Shown: positions 1 to 64,000 of the stretch, piece by piece
Layout: every line of letters begins with the position of its first letter
How positions within the stretch are numbered: the stretch's first letter is position 1
Origin: an uncultured Verrucomicrobiae bacterium
Lineage (GTDB): Bacteria; Chlamydiota; Chlamydiia; Chlamydiales; Rhabdochlamydiaceae
Direction of reading: 5' to 3'
Length of the DNA: 64,000 nt
Assembly: GCA_963718565.1 (NCBI GenBank)
Contig: OY970364.1
Span: 192,001-256,000, forward strand
Made by a program: the position numbers

Positions 1-3000
1 ATCATAAACGGACGACTCGCTAATTCTTAAAATCGCCGCTATTTCCCCTGGACTGTGGCAATCATCCCTACCTAAAATGACGCATACACGGTTCCGTTCG
101 TTGACATCTCTTGTTTTTTTTACAAGCTGTTCTAAATATAAACGCTGCTCATTGGACAACTTTTGCATAGAAGCATTATCCACTATCGCTGAAATATTTT
201 TTAGGGAAATTTAAAATTTTACAGAATCCAATCATGAATAGTATATATGATCAGGTTTGATCAAGTTTTGAAGAGCGGAAGAATTTTCAACAACAGGATA
301 TCTGATTAAGTTGCCTGTGGATGGAGCCTTTTTTGAGATATCAGATTCCCCCTGGATACGTGAATTTGGACAAGAACGATCTAGAATTTTAGATAAGTGC
401 AAGCATTATGTCCTTCGGTTTTACGATGAAACAATAGAAATTATTGCCCAAGATTTTGTGTTTGAGCAATTGAAAGAAAAGCCGCTAATTAACTGCTAGG
501 GCATTGAAATTTTCTAGAAAAAAGAGAGGATTCTTTTTAATTAAGGTAAATAAATGAATGCCGATATTTACATCAAAGTGAGATTCAAGACAAGCGAGGA
601 AGGCGGCCGTAAAACGTCTGTGAAACGCAAAACTCCGCTCGGGCCAGATTTTTATGGCTGTCCATTGATGGTTGATGGCAAAGCATATGACTGTCGCTTA
701 CTAACTCACCTTACGCAAATCGGTAAAAATTTCTTGACAAGGCCTGTCTTTTTTTCGTAGTCTTGTTCAATTTTTTGGAGAAAAAATGAACAGACTACTC
801 GATATCTATTCGGATTACTTGATTGCTCAGAATCAATATGCAACAGCAGTTGGTCTCTCAGTGCGCTGCCGACAAAAAGTTGGACAGAAAATCGAGGGGA
901 ATAAGTAACTCTCTGTGTTAAGTCTTTCTCTATAAGCCATTCTGCAGCTCATATTCGCTGCATATTATTCTAAGGTTATATTTCCTACAATCTCTTTTTT
1001 TCTTTTCTTCTTTTTTCTCCAGTGAGAACTTTCCTGTTTTCGGGGGTGCGGGGGCGAAGCCCCGACCCTCCTCTTATTCTGAAAAACAGACCTTATAATG
1101 CCCAAACTGAGGTGGATGGGGTAGGGGCCCCATCCGCCGAAGGCGGGAGCAGGGGGGACGGTAGTCCCCCGACAAGCCTTTCCCAAATAAGCCGGACAGG
1201 CTTCTTGAAAAGCCCTCGGAATGCTTGGCATATACGTACACAAACGTTCTTGGATTTTCAACTTTCATTTTTTTGCTTTTTTGACTTCGAATCCTTTGTA
1301 CTCTCCTTTTGAATATTTGGGTTTGATTCCATGATAAATTTCATTGGGTGTCGCATACAATAAGGCCTGATGCGGTCTACTGCAATTGAAATGCTCGATA
1401 TACTCATCAACCCCAGCACGCAGTGCTCTTACTGTTTCATAACGATGTAAATATATTTTTTCGTATTTCAGAGACCACCAACCTCTCTCTTGATAGACGT
1501 TGTCAATGCACCTGCCCTTGCCGTCCATGCTGATCTTGATACCTCGTTGCCGCAATAATTCTAGAAACGCGGTGCTTGTAAATTGAGACCCTTGATCCGT
1601 GTTAAAATATTCTGGACACGTTTTCTGTAAGGCTATTTCTAGTGCTGCAAGACAAAAATCCACAGTTATAGTGTTCGAGAGCTCCTGAGCAAGCACGTAT
1701 CTGCTAAACCAATCGGTCACTGTAATCAGATAGACAAAACCGTTAGCCAATGGGAGAAATGTTATATCGGCACTGAAAACCTGGTTAGGAGTTCCAATCC
1801 ACAAACCATTTAATAAATAGGGATAGTGCGGGTGTGATGCGGAGGGTTTGCTGAGGTTTTTTCTGGGAAGAACAGATAAAAACCCCATTTTTCTCCATAA
1901 CCTCTCAATCCTTTTTTCATTCACGTTAAATCCCTCACGCCTTAAATCGGCATGTATTTTTCTATAACCATATTCGGGTTGCGCATAATGCAATTCTTCT
2001 ATTTTCTGCATAAGAGCAAGGGTTTCTTCTGACTCTACTATAGGAGCATAGTAATAACTAGATCGAGGGAGGCCCAACGCTTCACATTGAGCCTCGACAG
2101 ACAACATGGGATGTTCAGGTTCAATCAACCTGCGTTTCTCAAGAGTTGTCAACCCCGGTTTTTTTTTTCAAAAATTCGAGCTGAGACTGAAGCCTGCCTA
2201 TTTGGGCATAAAGCGCCTCAATGTCTATATCTGGGGCCGATTTTTTTTTACGCCTATCTTCAAACAGCCGCGAGATGCCTTGAACTGCTTGACTTTTCCA
2301 TTTGGTGATTTGTGCTGGATGTATTTTGAATTGTTGGGCCAAGTCTGATAGTATAATGGTCCCCAAAATTTAGACCACTGTCTAAGCTAATATCCTCCCA
2401 ATGCGAGGAGGCCAAAATGGCCAAAACAAAAAAACAATATTCACCGGAGTTCAAGCTCAAAGTAGTACTAGAAGTGCTCAAGGGTGAGAAGACAGCAACC
2501 CAACTCGCTGGCGAGTTGGGGGTACATCCCGTAGTTCTGTCGGAATGGAAAAAACAATTTATTGAGGCAGGACCTCAGATTTTTGTAAAGACCAGGAGGT
2601 CTAGGGATACAGCAGAGGGCAAAGAAAAGGCCGAACTGTTCGAACAGATTGGAAGACTCAAGATGGAGAACGAGTGGCTTAAAAAAAAATTGGGGGCTTT
2701 GACCTGAATGAAAAACGGGCACTCATTGAACCTCACGATATCAAATTTTCCCAAAGAGCACAGTGTAAGCTCCTCGGAGTATGTCGATCTGGATTGTACT
2801 ACGAGCCACAGCAGCCTGGTGAAGAAGACTTGCGACTCATGTGCGCAATCGACAAACAGTACCTCGAAACCCCCTATTATGGGAGGCGTCGAATGACAGT
2901 GGCAATGAGAAAACTAGGATTTGTCGTGGGACAGAAAAAAGTGCGAACAGCGATGCAGGTGATGGGGATAGAGGCGATCTATCCAAAGCCGAACCTGAGC

Positions 3001-63000: not shown

Positions 63001-64000
63001 TCGAGGCTGTGCAGATCTTCAATCATTTTTGAAGTGATTCGCTCCGGTTTCCAATACTTCGGACCGCCATGCACCATGCGATGCCCTACCGCAGCCAATG
63101 CATCGTGCTGACTGCGCTGCTCGATCCAATCCATTAGGAAGCCCACTGCTGCTGTATGATCTGTCGCCGCTATCGGTCTTGAGAAATTGTCCGCCGGGTT
63201 TACACCCTTCACTCGCAAAGCAGCGTCAGGCAATCCAATCCGCTCGATTGTGCCTTCTAGAATCCGTTGAAGAGAGTCATCCACTTCAAACAGCGCAAAC
63301 TTGATGCTCGAAGAGCCGCCATTGATCGTCAGGACGCGCGATTTAGCTGGTTTCATGGATAGCTCCTTCGTAATTATGCAATCCAAACGAAGCTAATTTC
63401 GTACAGGTGGATTTATAATCTGTGTGAAGAATGCTTCGAATCCCCAGCCCTTCAGCGATCTCGACAAACATCGGGGTGTTTTCAATATAGAGCACCTTTT
63501 GAGGCTCCGCTTGAGCGATATCCAACGCAAGCCGAAAAATTTCCTTGTCTGGTTTGCGGATGTGGACGAAGCAGGAAGAAATAAAAGAGTCTATAAAGCG
63601 ATTCAGCTTGAACGTTCGAATCCGATACGCATTTAGTTCTCGCGCTTCGTTGCTAACCACAACGATTTTCAATCCATGCCGAACCTTGAGTTGAGTAACC
63701 ATCTCGATCATCTCAGAATAAGGTTTCGATTGCGCGAACATAAAACGTCGAAACTGAGCCCGAGTGAACGATCGCTTTTGGTAGAAGACCACTAGATTTA
63801 AATATTCTTCTAGAGTGATCTTTCCTTTCTCATAGATTTCGAAGATTAGGTGATGCCGATCTTCTATATCGGAAAACTTGAGTTTGAAGTGGATCGCTGC
63901 CCGTTTGCGGGCATGATGATCCCATCCGTTAGTGAGCAGGACGCCGCCGATATCCAGAAATAAGTGTGTGATTGCCGCATTTTTCATCGCGTTTTTCTTC

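Follow-up and report, generated by a model that had tools for sequence, protein, structure and literature searches.

The locus described here raises the question of how a single tRNA-Met gene in a chlamydial genome came to be followed by six integrase-bearing intervals, and what these intervals deliver. The window, i.e. the whole stretch analysed, comprises 64,000 nucleotides, and its position 1 is contig position 192001 of the source genome (G000), which is a single contig of 2.28 Mb. We consider it very likely that the locus is an accretion array, in which integrative, non-conjugative islands that use one tyrosine-integrase family were inserted serially and site-specifically into the 3' half of tRNA-Met(CAT) of an environmental chlamydia.

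The full tRNA-Met(CAT) was placed by ARAGORN at contig 271579-271653, on the minus strand. A mismatch search of the whole 2.28-Mb genome recovered seven same-strand copies of the 45-nt tRNA 3' half with 0-6 mismatches, and thereby reproduced the number of copies and the total length of 106 kb given in the initial annotation. The copies start at contig positions 165059 (5 mismatches), 169582 (5), 184047 (6), 213330 (0), 230599 (0), 245095 (6), and 271579 (the tRNA itself). Spacings from repeat to repeat are 4.5, 14.5, 29.3, 17.3, 14.5, and 26.5 kb (sum 106.5 kb), and the six intervals are here named A to F. Two more copies were found outside the array, at contig 860160 and 1647547. Exactly the same nine copies were returned by an nhmmer profile search, where all remaining matches were other tRNA genes, and neither search found a further copy inside the island bodies. 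Three repeats (21330, 38599, and 53095), the whole of islands D and E, and parts of C and F fall within the window. Perfect copies at window positions 21330 and 38599 had no counterpart in shuffled sequence (none in 100 of 100 shuffles).

1..21329: window part of island C (whole island contig 184092-213329, 29.3 kb, with repeats at contig 184047 and 213330)
21330..21374, minus strand: repeat copy 4, boundary of islands C and D, 0 mismatches
21375..38598: island D, whole, 17.2 kb, without IS, both bounding repeats perfect
38599..38643, minus strand: repeat copy 5, boundary of islands D and E, 0 mismatches
38644..53094: island E, whole, 14.5 kb, with three IS insertions
53095..53139, minus strand: repeat copy 6, 6 mismatches, compensatory T-stem variant GCAGG/CCTGC
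53140..64000: window part of island F (whole island contig 245140-271578, 26.4 kb)

A Phage_integrase protein (Pfam) is encoded in every interval, 120-170 bp inside the tRNA-proximal repeat. Repeats and integrase genes thus agree at every interval on the tandem arrangement at the tRNA-Met 3' end that had been proposed. The accompanying statement that each island has its own integrase holds for all six intervals, but the gene total is eight rather than six, islands D and F each carrying a second, inward-facing copy with backbone genes of its own. All eight integrases belong to one family (39-80% identity); the two second integrases are 95% identical, IntD and IntF are 80% identical, and the integrases of A, B, C, and E are only 38-57% identical to IntD or IntF. 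IntB, in the second interval, was correctly described as fragmented, and consists of two pieces that lack the C-terminal half. IntA, IntC, IntD, IntE, IntF, and both second integrases are full length and retain six residues that are invariant in the alignment of the seven intact proteins (R209, K234, H296, R299, H322, and Y331), to which we assign the catalytic roles of a tyrosine recombinase.

15863..18202, minus strand: primase-helicase of island C, RepB_primase and DUF3987 (Pfam 2.8e-79; PHROGs DNA helicase and primase)
18267..18464, minus strand: small 65-aa protein, present by homology in every backbone, with a weak HTH_17 match (E 0.0011) below the cut-off
20045..21166, minus strand: IntC, 373 aa (Phage_integrase 7.2e-26, Int_N 3.4e-08)
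28547..32001, plus strand: second-integrase module of island D, with IntD2 (28638-29774) and 240-aa, small 97-aa, and 349-aa proteins
37367..38458, minus strand: IntD, 363 aa (Phage_integrase 2.4e-32)
45143..48452, minus strand: IS-split DUF927 primase-helicase of island E (DUF927 7e-66 and 1.9e-11 on the two pieces; PHROGs DNA primase 9.9e-83)
50698..50868, minus strand: small backbone protein homologue of island E (tblastn, 46% over 57 aa to the 97-aa protein)
51864..52967, minus strand: IntE, 367 aa (Phage_integrase 2.1e-31)

The small backbone proteins of 65 aa (C), 73 aa (B), and 97 aa (second-integrase module of D and F) and the ORF in E are homologous, and the 65-aa protein is, judging from its sequence, likely an excisionase-like HTH protein. 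Replication genes are of a different type in each island that has them: an AAA_25/DnaG-type protein of 571 aa in B, RepB_primase with DUF3987 in C, and DUF927 in E; A has none. A replication module beside the integrase, as in tycheposons (see below), was accordingly found in B, C, and E.

The sequences between the repeats and the neighbouring island genes, here called arms, carry short dyads that differ with integrase type. A genome-wide motif search found TGGACCA-N4-TGGACCAC on both sides of A, D, and F, and this dyad has five exact copies in the genome, each adjoining a repeat copy of the array. Both arms of island B have GGTGCA-N5-GGTGCAA, whose sole other exact copy adjoins the integrase at a second tRNA-Met locus, and both arms of island E have TGACCA-N5-TGACCAC, with only two exact copies in the genome.

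21240..21257, minus strand: C-type dyad TGGCAC-N6-GGCACG, between the repeat and IntC, sole exact occurrence in the genome
21486..21504, minus strand: A/D/F-type dyad TGGACCATTTGTGGACCAC, distal arm of island D
38498..38516, minus strand: A/D/F-type dyad, proximal arm of island D
38761..38778, minus strand: E-type dyad, distal arm of island E
53006..53023, minus strand: E-type dyad, proximal arm of island E
53250..53268, minus strand: A/D/F-type dyad, distal arm of island F (proximal partner outside the window, at contig 271478)

Integrase-specific dyads are thus present on both arms in 5 of 6 islands, and we infer that they are the arm sites of the integrases; the same pairing was seen in the congeners G014, G017, and G018, and in G157, a member of another genus of the family. 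Island C has the C-type dyad at its proximal arm only and the A/D/F-type dyad at its distal arm, whereas the IntC-type island of G014 has the C-type dyad on both. Because of this mismatch, island C is regarded as a composite, with an IntC-type backbone proximally and an A/D/F-type arm motif distally, and since it carries the arm motifs of two integrase types, at least seven elements contributed to the array.

In the proposed mechanism, the att site of an element would be a 45-48-nt copy of the tRNA 3' end set between two dyad-bearing arms, the dyad being matched to the element's own integrase. Integration would restore the tRNA with the 3' half brought by the element and leave the displaced half at the far end, and newer arrivals would displace older islands outward. 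The backbone would comprise an integrase, a small HTH protein, and a primase-helicase, replaced in the D/F type by the module with the second, inward-facing integrase, and the remainder would be cargo. In the congener G012 the working tRNA has a variant 3' half identical to the G000 copies at 184047 and 245095, and the native-type half lies 16.5 kb off, at the island's other end. Full tRNA-Met genes with the variant T-stem were also seen at 2 other chlamydial MAG loci, and a weak Rfam tRNA call covers the region of repeat copy 6 (window 53096-53162). The type of tRNA half does not track that of the integrase, B and E having one and C, D, and F the other. Repeat copies 165059, 169582, and 860160 are mosaics of two T-stem variants. 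One crossover in the anticodon loop does not yield such copies; they call for a different crossover point or for subsequent exchange between copies.

Such exchange, together with the likeness of islands D and F, raises the alternative that fewer than six acquisitions took place, with a D/F-type island duplicated in place and resident copies recombining. D and F share their architecture and arm dyad, the distal arms of C, D, and F resemble each other at 88-91%, and the module of island D aligns over 3463 bp with contig 261977-265435 in island F at 92.8% identity. The cargo on either side of the module is, however, entirely unlike in D and F, and IntD and IntF fall in separate sub-branches, each beside integrases of other MAGs, in what is only a quick tree. 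The divergence of the A, B, C, and E integrases and the arm motifs that B, C, and E have of their own also speak against it, as does a G157 island that joins parts of D and F and indicates that such variants circulate between genomes. We therefore regard duplication in place as unlikely, and retain serial insertion.

The D module is oriented towards IntD. No repeat copy lies beside it, and a search upstream found no tRNA-like sequence. Its 349-aa protein, like that of island F, has a predicted winged-helix N-domain, and the inverted module recurs in at least 10 of 78 related loci. One tentative proposal, which we consider rather doubtful, is that D/F-type islands form a distinct, phylum-wide class of element with paralogous integrases at the att site and facing inward, and with two cargo slots exchanged between elements. 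The second integrase would then be no remnant but a working part, with a role in replicon resolution, cargo capture, or excision control, and the family would be a main route by which defence systems, vitamin pathways, and resistance-like genes enter environmental chlamydiae.

Island C contains the riboswitch-controlled thiamine operon that the initial annotation had reported, with the riboswitch 33 nt ahead of the first gene and ThiS encoded by a 68-aa ORF (window 11020-11226) that ends in GG. A homologous operon lies within the tRNA-Met island of G012. The IS cluster at the start of the window has copies of 99-100% identity elsewhere in the genome (domains DDE_3, rve, and HTH_Tnp_1).

1..3688: IS cluster, with an IS630-type end (1-245), an IS fragment (698-861), and two IS3-family copies (861-2352 and 2347-3688)
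5622..6656, minus strand: RhuM-family protein (Virulence_RhuM 5.3e-113; PADLOC candidate PDC-S05 8.2e-159)
6728..7909: IS copy with DDE_5/DDE_Tnp_1 transposase, ∼10 copies at >99% identity
8157..8253, plus strand: TPP riboswitch (Rfam RF00059, 73.9 bits against a gathering score of 54.3)
8286..15107, plus strand: thiamine operon with THI5/NMT1-like, ThiD, ThiO, ThiS, ThiG, TenI/ThiE-like, ThiE, ThiF, and ThiL proteins (Pfam and NCBIfam)

Island D carries an Rhs-family protein on one side of the module and phosphotransferase and exporter genes on the other. The Rhs toxin of the initial annotation stands as an Rhs-family protein; its C-terminal part (∼285 aa) has no family match at E up to 1. 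The fusion protein in the second cargo block matches NCBIfam APH_9_Ia at 4.9e-123 (410.6 bits), which is under the 680-bit cut-off.

21604..27102, plus strand: Rhs-family protein, 1832 aa (RHS_repeat 1.4e-32; Rhs_assc_core at residues 1463-1547)
27092-27361: 89-aa ORF overlapping the 3' end of the Rhs gene, followed by a CPCC protein (27384-27641)
32144..37327, plus strand: cargo between module and IntD, with GNAT, GrpB-APH(9)-like-GNAT fusion (656 aa), ABC exporter, and APH-family kinase (Pfam)

Island E holds a candidate defence cluster with weak PADLOC matches (pAgo-profile N-region 7e-22, PDC-S07 6.8e-11), and an IS copy at window 46632-47812 divides its primase-helicase. Genes of island F in the window encode a photolyase, an NAD-binding/DUF2867 protein, a Zn-dehydrogenase, and a HAD hydrolase (Pfam and NCBIfam). 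A P-type H+-ATPase of the same island is in two ORFs, and phosphoketolase and acetate kinase each have an apparent frameshift on reading of the ack/xfp junction. The window contains seven IS copies in all.

38852..41485, minus strand: candidate defence cluster of a Schlafen/AlbA_2-HATPase_c_4 protein (452 aa), a NUDIX hydrolase, and a CoiA-like nuclease-domain protein
41470..42806: IS3-family copy
48458..50530: IS4-like copy, 2073 bp, ∼20 genome copies

Defence genes within the window are candidate singletons only (RhuM/PDC-S05, the Schlafen-AlbA_2 ATPase, and the NUDIX protein). To describe the array as full of defence genes goes too far. Three complete systems occur among ∼110 ORFs, all outside the window: Kiwa (KwaA 2.1e-39 and KwaB 1.7e-76, adjacent at contig 169888-171292), type I R-M (REase_I 1.4e-134, Specificity_I 4.2e-93, and MTase_I 3.7e-158, contig 171299-176501), and a two-gene CBASS (cyclase 6.2e-113 and patatin effector 4.1e-160, contig 260066-262016). 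These PADLOC values match those reported before for the cyclase, the effector, and KwaB, and the R, M, and S subunits agree with the type I R-M named there. KwaA had been called partial, but its 172-aa ORF spans positions 1-170 of the 173-position profile. The Abi-type genes exist as AbiEi (9.9e-09), AbiEii-like, and AbiLi matches, but AbiE is not intact, the AbiEii-like nucleotidyltransferase ORF (145 aa) being cut by a 2073-bp IS, and of AbiL PADLOC found AbiLi alone. Among genomes sampled from the phylum, KwaB was detected in 1 of 300 and the CBASS cyclase profile in 2 of 301.

No conjugation domains were found by Pfam among 132 ORFs. TraG-D_C, TrwC, and TraC_F_IV, the three families tried, were not found in the whole genome, where control searches responded, and membership among ICEs was rejected on the absence of relaxase, coupling-protein, and TraC families. 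The islands were likewise rejected as a prophage or phage satellite, as Pfam on the 132 ORFs gave no capsid, terminase, portal, or capsid-redirecting genes; PHROGs on 34 of these ORFs returned only integrase, primase, and helicase.

The order of arrival, the transfer route, and any present-day mobility of the islands are inferred. Most of the array may now be immobile, since IntB is truncated, A is without a replication gene, IS have entered C, E, and F, and F has apparent frameshifts. A stronger version is that the array is a fossil of old integrations in which no island is able to excise and the repeats are scars that persist only through being recent or neutral; we give this somewhat less than an even chance. 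It would account for the missing catalytic half of IntB, the IS-split primase of island E, the IS in AbiEii of island F (missing from the G157 homologue), the ack, xfp, and P-type ATPase genes each in two frames, the mismatched arms of island C, and the 5-6 mismatches in 4 of 6 extra repeat copies. It fits poorly with island D, which is free of IS and combines two perfect repeats with an intact integrase and both arm dyads, and with the seven integrases that keep all six conserved residues. Moreover, island parts are 87-96% identical to those of another genus, which indicates movement that is recent relative to core divergence.

The accretion reading is further borne out by relatives. The initial annotation had found no empty site, but in the congener G001 the site is empty, and the gene that starts 13 bp after its tRNA corresponds to the gene that G014 has behind its third repeat copy (84.5% nt identity). 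In G014 the tRNA and this gene are 25.7 kb apart, and two islands occupy the site that is empty in G001. No empty site was found for the species of G000 itself. An integrase had been reported within 400 bp of the tRNA in 5 of 5 congeners; G007, G012, G014, G017, and G018 (a fragment only) have one and G001 has not, i.e. 5 of 6 inspected, which agrees with use of the site across the genus. Extra repeat copies, previously counted in 3 congeners, were found in 4 of 5 searched by BLAST. A 92% identical homologue of IntC adjoins the tRNA-Met of G007, whose island also has an 83% identical homologue of the island C primase-helicase.

In G157 the site is occupied by a single 23-kb island, whose sequence is a mosaic of G000 islands D and F. 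It is 87-90% identical to them at the nucleotide level (87.5% for the island D cargo at 32144..37327), whereas the flanks on both sides, homologous to G000 contig 157-159 kb and 288-297 kb, are 66-71% identical. A search at E ≤ 1e-60 detected the integrase family in 137 of the 301 genomes sampled from the phylum. In 36 of 78 related loci the integrase has a tRNA-Met half within 500 bp upstream, and in 18 of the 78, from non-chlamydial relatives (42-53% identity), it has another tRNA there. No excised or circular form of an island was seen in the contigs of relatives that were aligned, and no public sequencing run had more than 34% of the words of a test stretch.

Records of the relatives are metagenome-assembled genomes, different islands occupy the same site in different congeners, and the genome is rich in IS copies at >99% identity, all of which would suit an assembly that chained islands of co-occurring strains through shared repeats and IS. 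Such an artefact is very improbable. G000 is one 2.28-Mb contig with a marker-gene contamination of 0.33%, long contigs of three other congeners show 2-3 islands arrayed at the same tRNA, and G128 has six integrase matches within 92 kb. In addition, the arm motifs pair correctly over 5 of 6 intervals, which is not expected from random chaining.

P4-like and PICI satellites resemble accreted islands of this kind in their backbone of integrase, small regulator, and primase with variable defence cargo. They differ in their capsid-hijacking and packaging genes, which were not found here (Pfam on 132 ORFs, PHROGs on 34), and we know of no such helper phages for chlamydiae. Island arrays at the tmRNA gene of Dehalococcoides are also tandem and bounded by copies of a small-RNA-gene 3' end. 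In architecture the array resembles the tycheposons of Prochlorococcus, from a different phylum and lifestyle. The preprint on them describes a tyrosine recombinase, often a primase/helicase, cargo, and a tRNA site; full and partial tRNA flanks, with serial integration moving older elements outward; and fragmented integrases, extra partial tRNAs, and adaptive cargo for nutrients and defence (bioRxiv 10.1101/2020.12.28.424599). The chlamydial array differs in up to six stacked intervals, 7 IS copies in the window, the second inward integrase of D and F, and type-specific dyads. Pam100G of Protochlamydia amoebophila UWE25, also an environmental chlamydia, is described as a tRNA-linked variable region of ∼100 kb bounded by direct repeats, forming one island that carries an F-like system for conjugative transfer (PMC548262). 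Here, six small islands each have an integrase at a tRNA-Met site, and the genome has no match to the three transfer families (Pfam). Streptococcal ICE/IME accretions are similarly tandem at one att site, with att copies between members and decayed members that lose recombination genes. They are reported to include a conjugative partner as a rule (PMC5704250, PMC7563491, PMC13651849), whereas conjugation genes were not found here.

Stacked tRNA islands, well known in other bacteria, seem hardly described in the chlamydial group. Accounts of gene gain in chlamydiae usually centre on plasmids and a small number of large islands. Chlamydiae are commonly regarded as nearly lacking phage-defence systems, and a survey speaks of their 'quasi absence' (PMC9090908). 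Here, the islands gathered at one tRNA-Met bring in Kiwa, type I R-M, CBASS, a complete thiamine pathway under riboswitch control, phosphotransferase/exporter genes, and an Rhs protein. The islands are a concrete and testable vehicle for gene flow among obligate intracellular bacteria, to which the host presumably belongs. The defined att site of the islands, a 45-48-nt core with type-specific dyads, could guide the systematic mapping of such islands, and could in time serve as an integration tool for a genetically intractable group.

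The genome under study (G000) is a single contig of 2,284,058 bp with 43.6% G+C, and the window covers its positions 192001-256000. ARAGORN places a full tRNA-Met(CAT) gene at contig 271579-271653 on the minus strand, and three shorter tRNA-Met-like calls at contig 184047, 213330 and 245095. The tRNA targeted by the array could be either elongator tRNA-Met or the CAU-anticodon tRNA-Ile2. A mismatch search of the genome with the last 45 nt of this gene (the 45-mer) gave the following copies at the locus.

Copies of the tRNA-Met 3' half in the array (contig positions)
165059, strand of the tRNA: repeat copy, 5 mismatches
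169582, strand of the tRNA: repeat copy, 5 mismatches
184047, strand of the tRNA: repeat copy, 6 mismatches
213330 (window 21330), strand of the tRNA: repeat copy, 0 mismatches
230599 (window 38599), strand of the tRNA: repeat copy, 0 mismatches
245095 (window 53095), strand of the tRNA: variant repeat copy, 6 mismatches
271579, strand of the tRNA: repeat within the tRNA itself (query)

Two more copies lie elsewhere, at 860160 and 1647547. A genome-wide profile search recovered exactly the same nine copies, all other matches being other tRNA genes, so the islands contain no additional decayed copies; no 45-mer match arose in 100 shuffles of the window sequence. Both searches thus bear out the seven same-strand copies with 0-6 mismatches reported in the initial annotation. 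The six intervals, lettered A to F from the far end towards the tRNA, measure 4.5, 14.5, 29.3, 17.3, 14.5 and 26.5 kb (106.5 kb in sum), and the window contains the final 21.3 kb of island C, the whole of D and E, and the initial 10.9 kb of F. Under an accretion model, A would be the oldest arrival and F the newest, an order that follows from the model and not from the data. The two orphan copies (contig 860160-860339 and 1647547-1647650) have island-type arms and no tRNA, and were probably relocated by rearrangement.

All 132 crudely called ORFs of contig 158-276 kb were scanned with Pfam and PADLOC, and subsets of 74 and 34 with NCBIfam and PHROGs, respectively. In every interval, 120-170 bp in from the tRNA-proximal repeat and on the strand of the tRNA, there is a Phage_integrase gene (IntA to IntF), so each of the six islands does carry its own tyrosine integrase. 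The one integrase said to be fragmented is IntB, which is in two pieces; its Pfam match stops at profile position 93 of 172, so the catalytic half is missing. Behind the integrases lie different backbones.

Backbone genes by island
Island A: integrase; no replication gene
Island B: integrase, 73-aa protein, DnaG/AAA_25 primase-helicase
Island C: integrase, 480-aa protein, 65-aa protein, RepB_primase-DUF3987 protein
Island E: integrase, 247-aa protein, small protein, DUF927 primase split by an insertion sequence (IS)

Islands B, C and E and a second-integrase module in D and F encode small proteins that are homologous to one another and weakly match the excisionase-type HTH_17 domain, below its cut-off. 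No capsid, terminase, relaxase or secretion domain was detected (Pfam on the 132 ORFs, PHROGs on 34), and three conjugation families had no match anywhere in the genome in searches whose controls responded. The islands are therefore neither prophages nor integrative conjugative elements (ICEs), and by gene content resemble integrative elements with their own replication module.

Each repeat is flanked by a 17-19-nt dyad, ∼80-100 bp away on the integrase side and ∼110-118 bp on the other, and the dyad sequence tracks integrase type. TGGACCA-N4-TGGACCAC occurs at both arms of A, D and F, and its five exact genome copies all lie at arms of this array. Both arms of island B carry GGTGCA-N5-GGTGCAA, of which the sole other exact copy adjoins the integrase of a second tRNA-Met locus at 693.6 kb. 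Island E has TGACCA-N5-TGACCAC at both arms, with no exact copy elsewhere in the genome. We take the dyads to be putative arm-type binding sites; the integrases carry an Int_N arm-binding domain, which exceeds the Pfam cut-off only in IntC. The arms of island C are mismatched, with TGGCAC-N6-GGCACG proximally and the A/D/F dyad distally, and an IntC-type island in the congener G014 has the C dyad at both arms. Interval C is thus a fusion product, an IntC-type element joined to the distal end of one of A/D/F type, and at least seven elements are recorded in the array. At contig 692480-693844, the other two CAT-anticodon tRNAs (693.7 kb) are also adjoined by an integrase and a B-type arm dyad.

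It had been claimed that no empty site could be found because the congeners are too divergent. This does not hold: in the congener G001 an 842-aa gene begins 13 bp after the tRNA, whereas in G014 its homologue (84.5% nucleotide identity) comes after the third repeat copy, 25.7 kb past the tRNA, with another repeat copy between. Exchange of the tRNA half itself can also be followed. Copies 184047 and 245095 have six differences from the tRNA in common, including a compensatory T-stem change (GCAGG/CCTGC versus CCTGG/CCAGG in the tRNA). The working tRNA of congener G012 has a 3' half that is exactly the 45-mer of these two copies, and its 16.5-kb island ends, on the far side, in a native-type half; the variant T-stem also occurs in full tRNA-Met genes of two further chlamydial MAG loci. 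Such a swap is what integration by an element carrying its own tRNA 3' half predicts. Copies 165059, 169582 and 860160 are mosaics of both variants and need either a second crossover point or exchange among copies. The mosaic cores by themselves could be read as a crossover in the T-loop, whereas the swap of the whole half in G012 rather indicates the side of the anticodon loop; either may apply.

Of the whole structure, a two-integrase architecture is the most likely novelty. A 3.46-kb block lies 6-8 kb inside both D and F, is 92.8% identical between them, and encodes an integrase, a 240-aa protein, a 97-aa small protein and a 349-aa protein, all transcribed towards the outer integrase. The second integrases are 95% identical to each other and 52-56% identical to IntA, IntD and IntF. 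Similarity between the D and F blocks has a sharp onset at a dyad-like sequence ∼90 bp in front of the start codon; this 20-mer has no partner in the genome. As for an attachment site of the second integrases, no tRNA-like sequence was found upstream, no repeat copy alongside and no direct repeats at the module ends. The same layout, of attachment site, outer integrase, variable cargo and inverted module, recurs in 10 of 78 related loci from other genomes (L034, L036, L038, L042, L045, L047, L051, L065, L068 and L092), on two further contigs through overlapping loci (L033 with L057, L044 with L054), and across a contig break in congener G017. The layout is therefore conserved, moves as one unit and has two cargo slots. 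Two loci, L061 and L078 (the latter with its first integrase in pieces), have tandem integrases ahead of homologues of the 97-aa protein and of a primase; a distant homologue of the 240-aa protein (24% identity) is present in L061 only. In a quick tree, the only integrase phylogeny made, their second integrase is sister to the inward-facing clade. The second integrase may be functional, or it may be a tolerated relic of some older element in inverted orientation.

The 349-aa protein belongs to a family of 67 homologues with no Pfam domain; it has no Pfam match at E ≤ 5 and none in PHROGs. Its structural model (mean pLDDT 66.9) consists of a winged-helix-like N-terminal domain, a disordered linker (residues 101-200) and a helical domain; Foldseek against PDB returned nothing at E ≤ 0.001, the best hits being wHTH regulators at E 0.03-0.3. 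An Atlas likeness (score 0.93), with 135-153 features in common with HTH_36/RepA_N initiators, serves as a lead only, and the look-alikes of the 240-aa protein are all unnamed.

The islands carry the following cargo.

Cargo by island
Island C: TPP riboswitch, 73.9 bits, before the thiamine operon
Island C: complete thiamine operon (THI5-like, ThiD, ThiO, ThiS, ThiG, TenI-like, ThiE, ThiF, ThiL)
Island C, other cargo in the window: RhuM protein, IS cluster
Island D: Rhs protein, 1832 aa
Island D, other cargo: GNAT, GrpB-APH(9)-like-GNAT fusion, ABC exporter, APH kinase
Island E: Schlafen/AlbA_2 ATPase, NUDIX, nuclease-like protein, CsaA, GNAT, SAP protein, racemase, three IS copies
Island F, window part: photolyase, dehydrogenases, P-type H+-ATPase (two ORFs), phosphoketolase, acetate kinase
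Island B, outside the window: Kiwa (full-length KwaA and KwaB) and type I R-M (PADLOC)
Island F right half, outside the window: two-gene CBASS (PADLOC)

The riboswitch-controlled thiamine operon is confirmed, and KwaA, previously called partial, is full length. The description of the islands as full of defence genes fits the outer parts of the array and not the window, since all complete known defence systems detected by PADLOC lie outside it. AbiEii is interrupted by an IS, and of AbiL only AbiLi was detected. The C-terminal part of the Rhs protein matched no family at E ≤ 1. The fusion protein, 656 aa long (window 32698-34668, plus strand), joins GrpB, an APH(9)-Ia-like phosphotransferase and GNAT; its phosphotransferase part scores 410.6 bits, below the 680-bit cut-off for the named enzyme. 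Downstream are the ABC exporter and a second APH-family kinase, a set shared at 87.5% nucleotide identity with G157, a genome of another genus in the same family. In island F, phosphoketolase and acetate kinase have one apparent frameshift each, and the P-type H+-ATPase (window 57159-59776) is in two frames; the sites are not long homopolymers, and the frameshifts may be real decay or sequencing or assembly error. At window 59776-63386 (minus strand), the C-terminal acetate kinase ORF runs on, with no stop codon and no change of frame, into the first ∼40 residues of phosphoketolase.

At least seven IS types are present in the genome, each in ∼10-20 copies of >99% identity, and the window holds IS at 1-245, 861-3688, 6728-7909, 41470-42806, 46632-47812 and 48458-50530. 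This load is an IS expansion like that of recently host-restricted bacteria. A ∼183-bp repeat at contig 272822-273003 (L003:16822-17003) has >30 scattered genome copies at 93-97% identity and resembles a MITE or REP element.

On the left, past the last repeat copy, lies a TOTE-type AEP-helicase gene (AEP-TOTE 6.6e-97; L112:17135-19369, contig 157.1-159.4 kb), which is the conserved left flank in G157 at 71% nucleotide identity, and an ATPase matching the PADLOC candidate PDC-S27 (1.1e-85; L001:5495-6922, contig 163.5-164.9 kb), with IS and LanC/HTH fragments between the two. On the right, the neighbour that is conserved is a DUF1207 gene at a distance of 16 kb. As synteny anchors, guaA on the right and an amine oxidase on the left were rejected, being found at E ≤ 1e-50 in only 2 and 0 of 18 congeners, respectively. 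On the 5' side of the tRNA, outside the window, a 16-kb purine block (L111:900-16500, contig 271.9-287.5 kb) holds guaB and guaA together with the full de novo set (purF, purN, purD, purC/E, purH, purQ, purL and purM). It stands between the tRNA and the DUF1207 gene, which directly adjoins the tRNA in congeners G007 and G014, and may mean that this locus has gained genes a second time, here on the opposite side of the tRNA.

Public runs contained at most 34% of the words of window 21200-31000 in any one run. Relatives at 90-99% likeness, available from four runs as contigs only, were compared with window 21000-39000, and no excision joint between the repeats at 21330 and 38599 was found in these contigs. 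One contig of run X1 links window 32011 to 37437 with uncharacterised content between, a junction that fits a variable cargo slot; the contig may stem from another organism. At window 38600-38644 an X1 contig goes back by 45 nt and so has the 45-mer twice, side by side; either island loss in a relative, leaving such a junction, or an assembly effect could account for it.

The 45-mer is present within 3 mismatches in 8 of 18 congeners. Among six inspected in detail, an integrase or integrase fragment lies within about 400 bp of the tRNA in five (G007, G012, G014, G017 and G018); the earlier count of five out of five becomes five out of six with G001, which has none. Extra repeat copies number three in G014, two in G018, one in G012, two in G017 (on a neighbouring contig) and none in G001. 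In G012 the thiamine operon is the cargo of an island with a different integrase, indicating that the operon moves between backbones. The 78 related loci came from a search with one genome per species, the close ones being named in their records as Chlamydiota MAGs (Parachlamydiales, Simkaniaceae and Rhabdochlamydiaceae, some labelled Verrucomicrobia). A tRNA-Met half lies ≤500 bp upstream of the integrase in 36 of them and another tRNA in 18, the latter all non-chlamydial relatives at 42-53% identity. At E ≤ 1e-60 the integrase family was found in 137 of 301 sampled phylum genomes and 89 of 165 genera, and in 0 of 30 genomes of one family. The KwaB profile and this CBASS cyclase profile had matches in 1 of 300 and 2 of 301 sampled genomes, respectively. 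In G128, from another family of the phylum, six integrase-family matches fall within 92 kb (G128:C1:877754-969892), so arrays of similar size probably exist elsewhere.

Comparison with G157 bears on movement between genera. Its tRNA has a single 23-kb island, and the sequences on either side are homologous to G000 157-159 kb and 288-297 kb, at 66-71% nucleotide identity. Parts of the island itself are much closer to G000 than these flanks: AbiE, CBASS and the second-integrase module of this island are 89-90% identical to island F, and its cargo and integrase 87.5% identical to island D, with the Rhs end (71.5%) as the exception. The G157 homologue of AbiEii lacks the IS by which the G000 gene is cut.

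That integrase-bearing islands accrete in tandem at tRNA genes is already well described. The closest analogue is the tycheposons of Prochlorococcus (bioRxiv 10.1101/2020.12.28.424599), and ICE/IME accretion gives a second example of tandem stacking (PMC5704250, PMC7563491, PMC13651849). In chlamydiae, the 100-kb conjugative island of Protochlamydia is on record (PMC548262); for anti-phage systems in the phylum, a survey speaks of a 'quasi absence' (PMC9090908). A full-text search of one collection of papers, judged by title and abstract, returned no publication on chlamydial tRNA-Met islands, or on CBASS or Kiwa borne by islands in this group. The array is a further case of a known structure, and its relevance is to chlamydial genomics.
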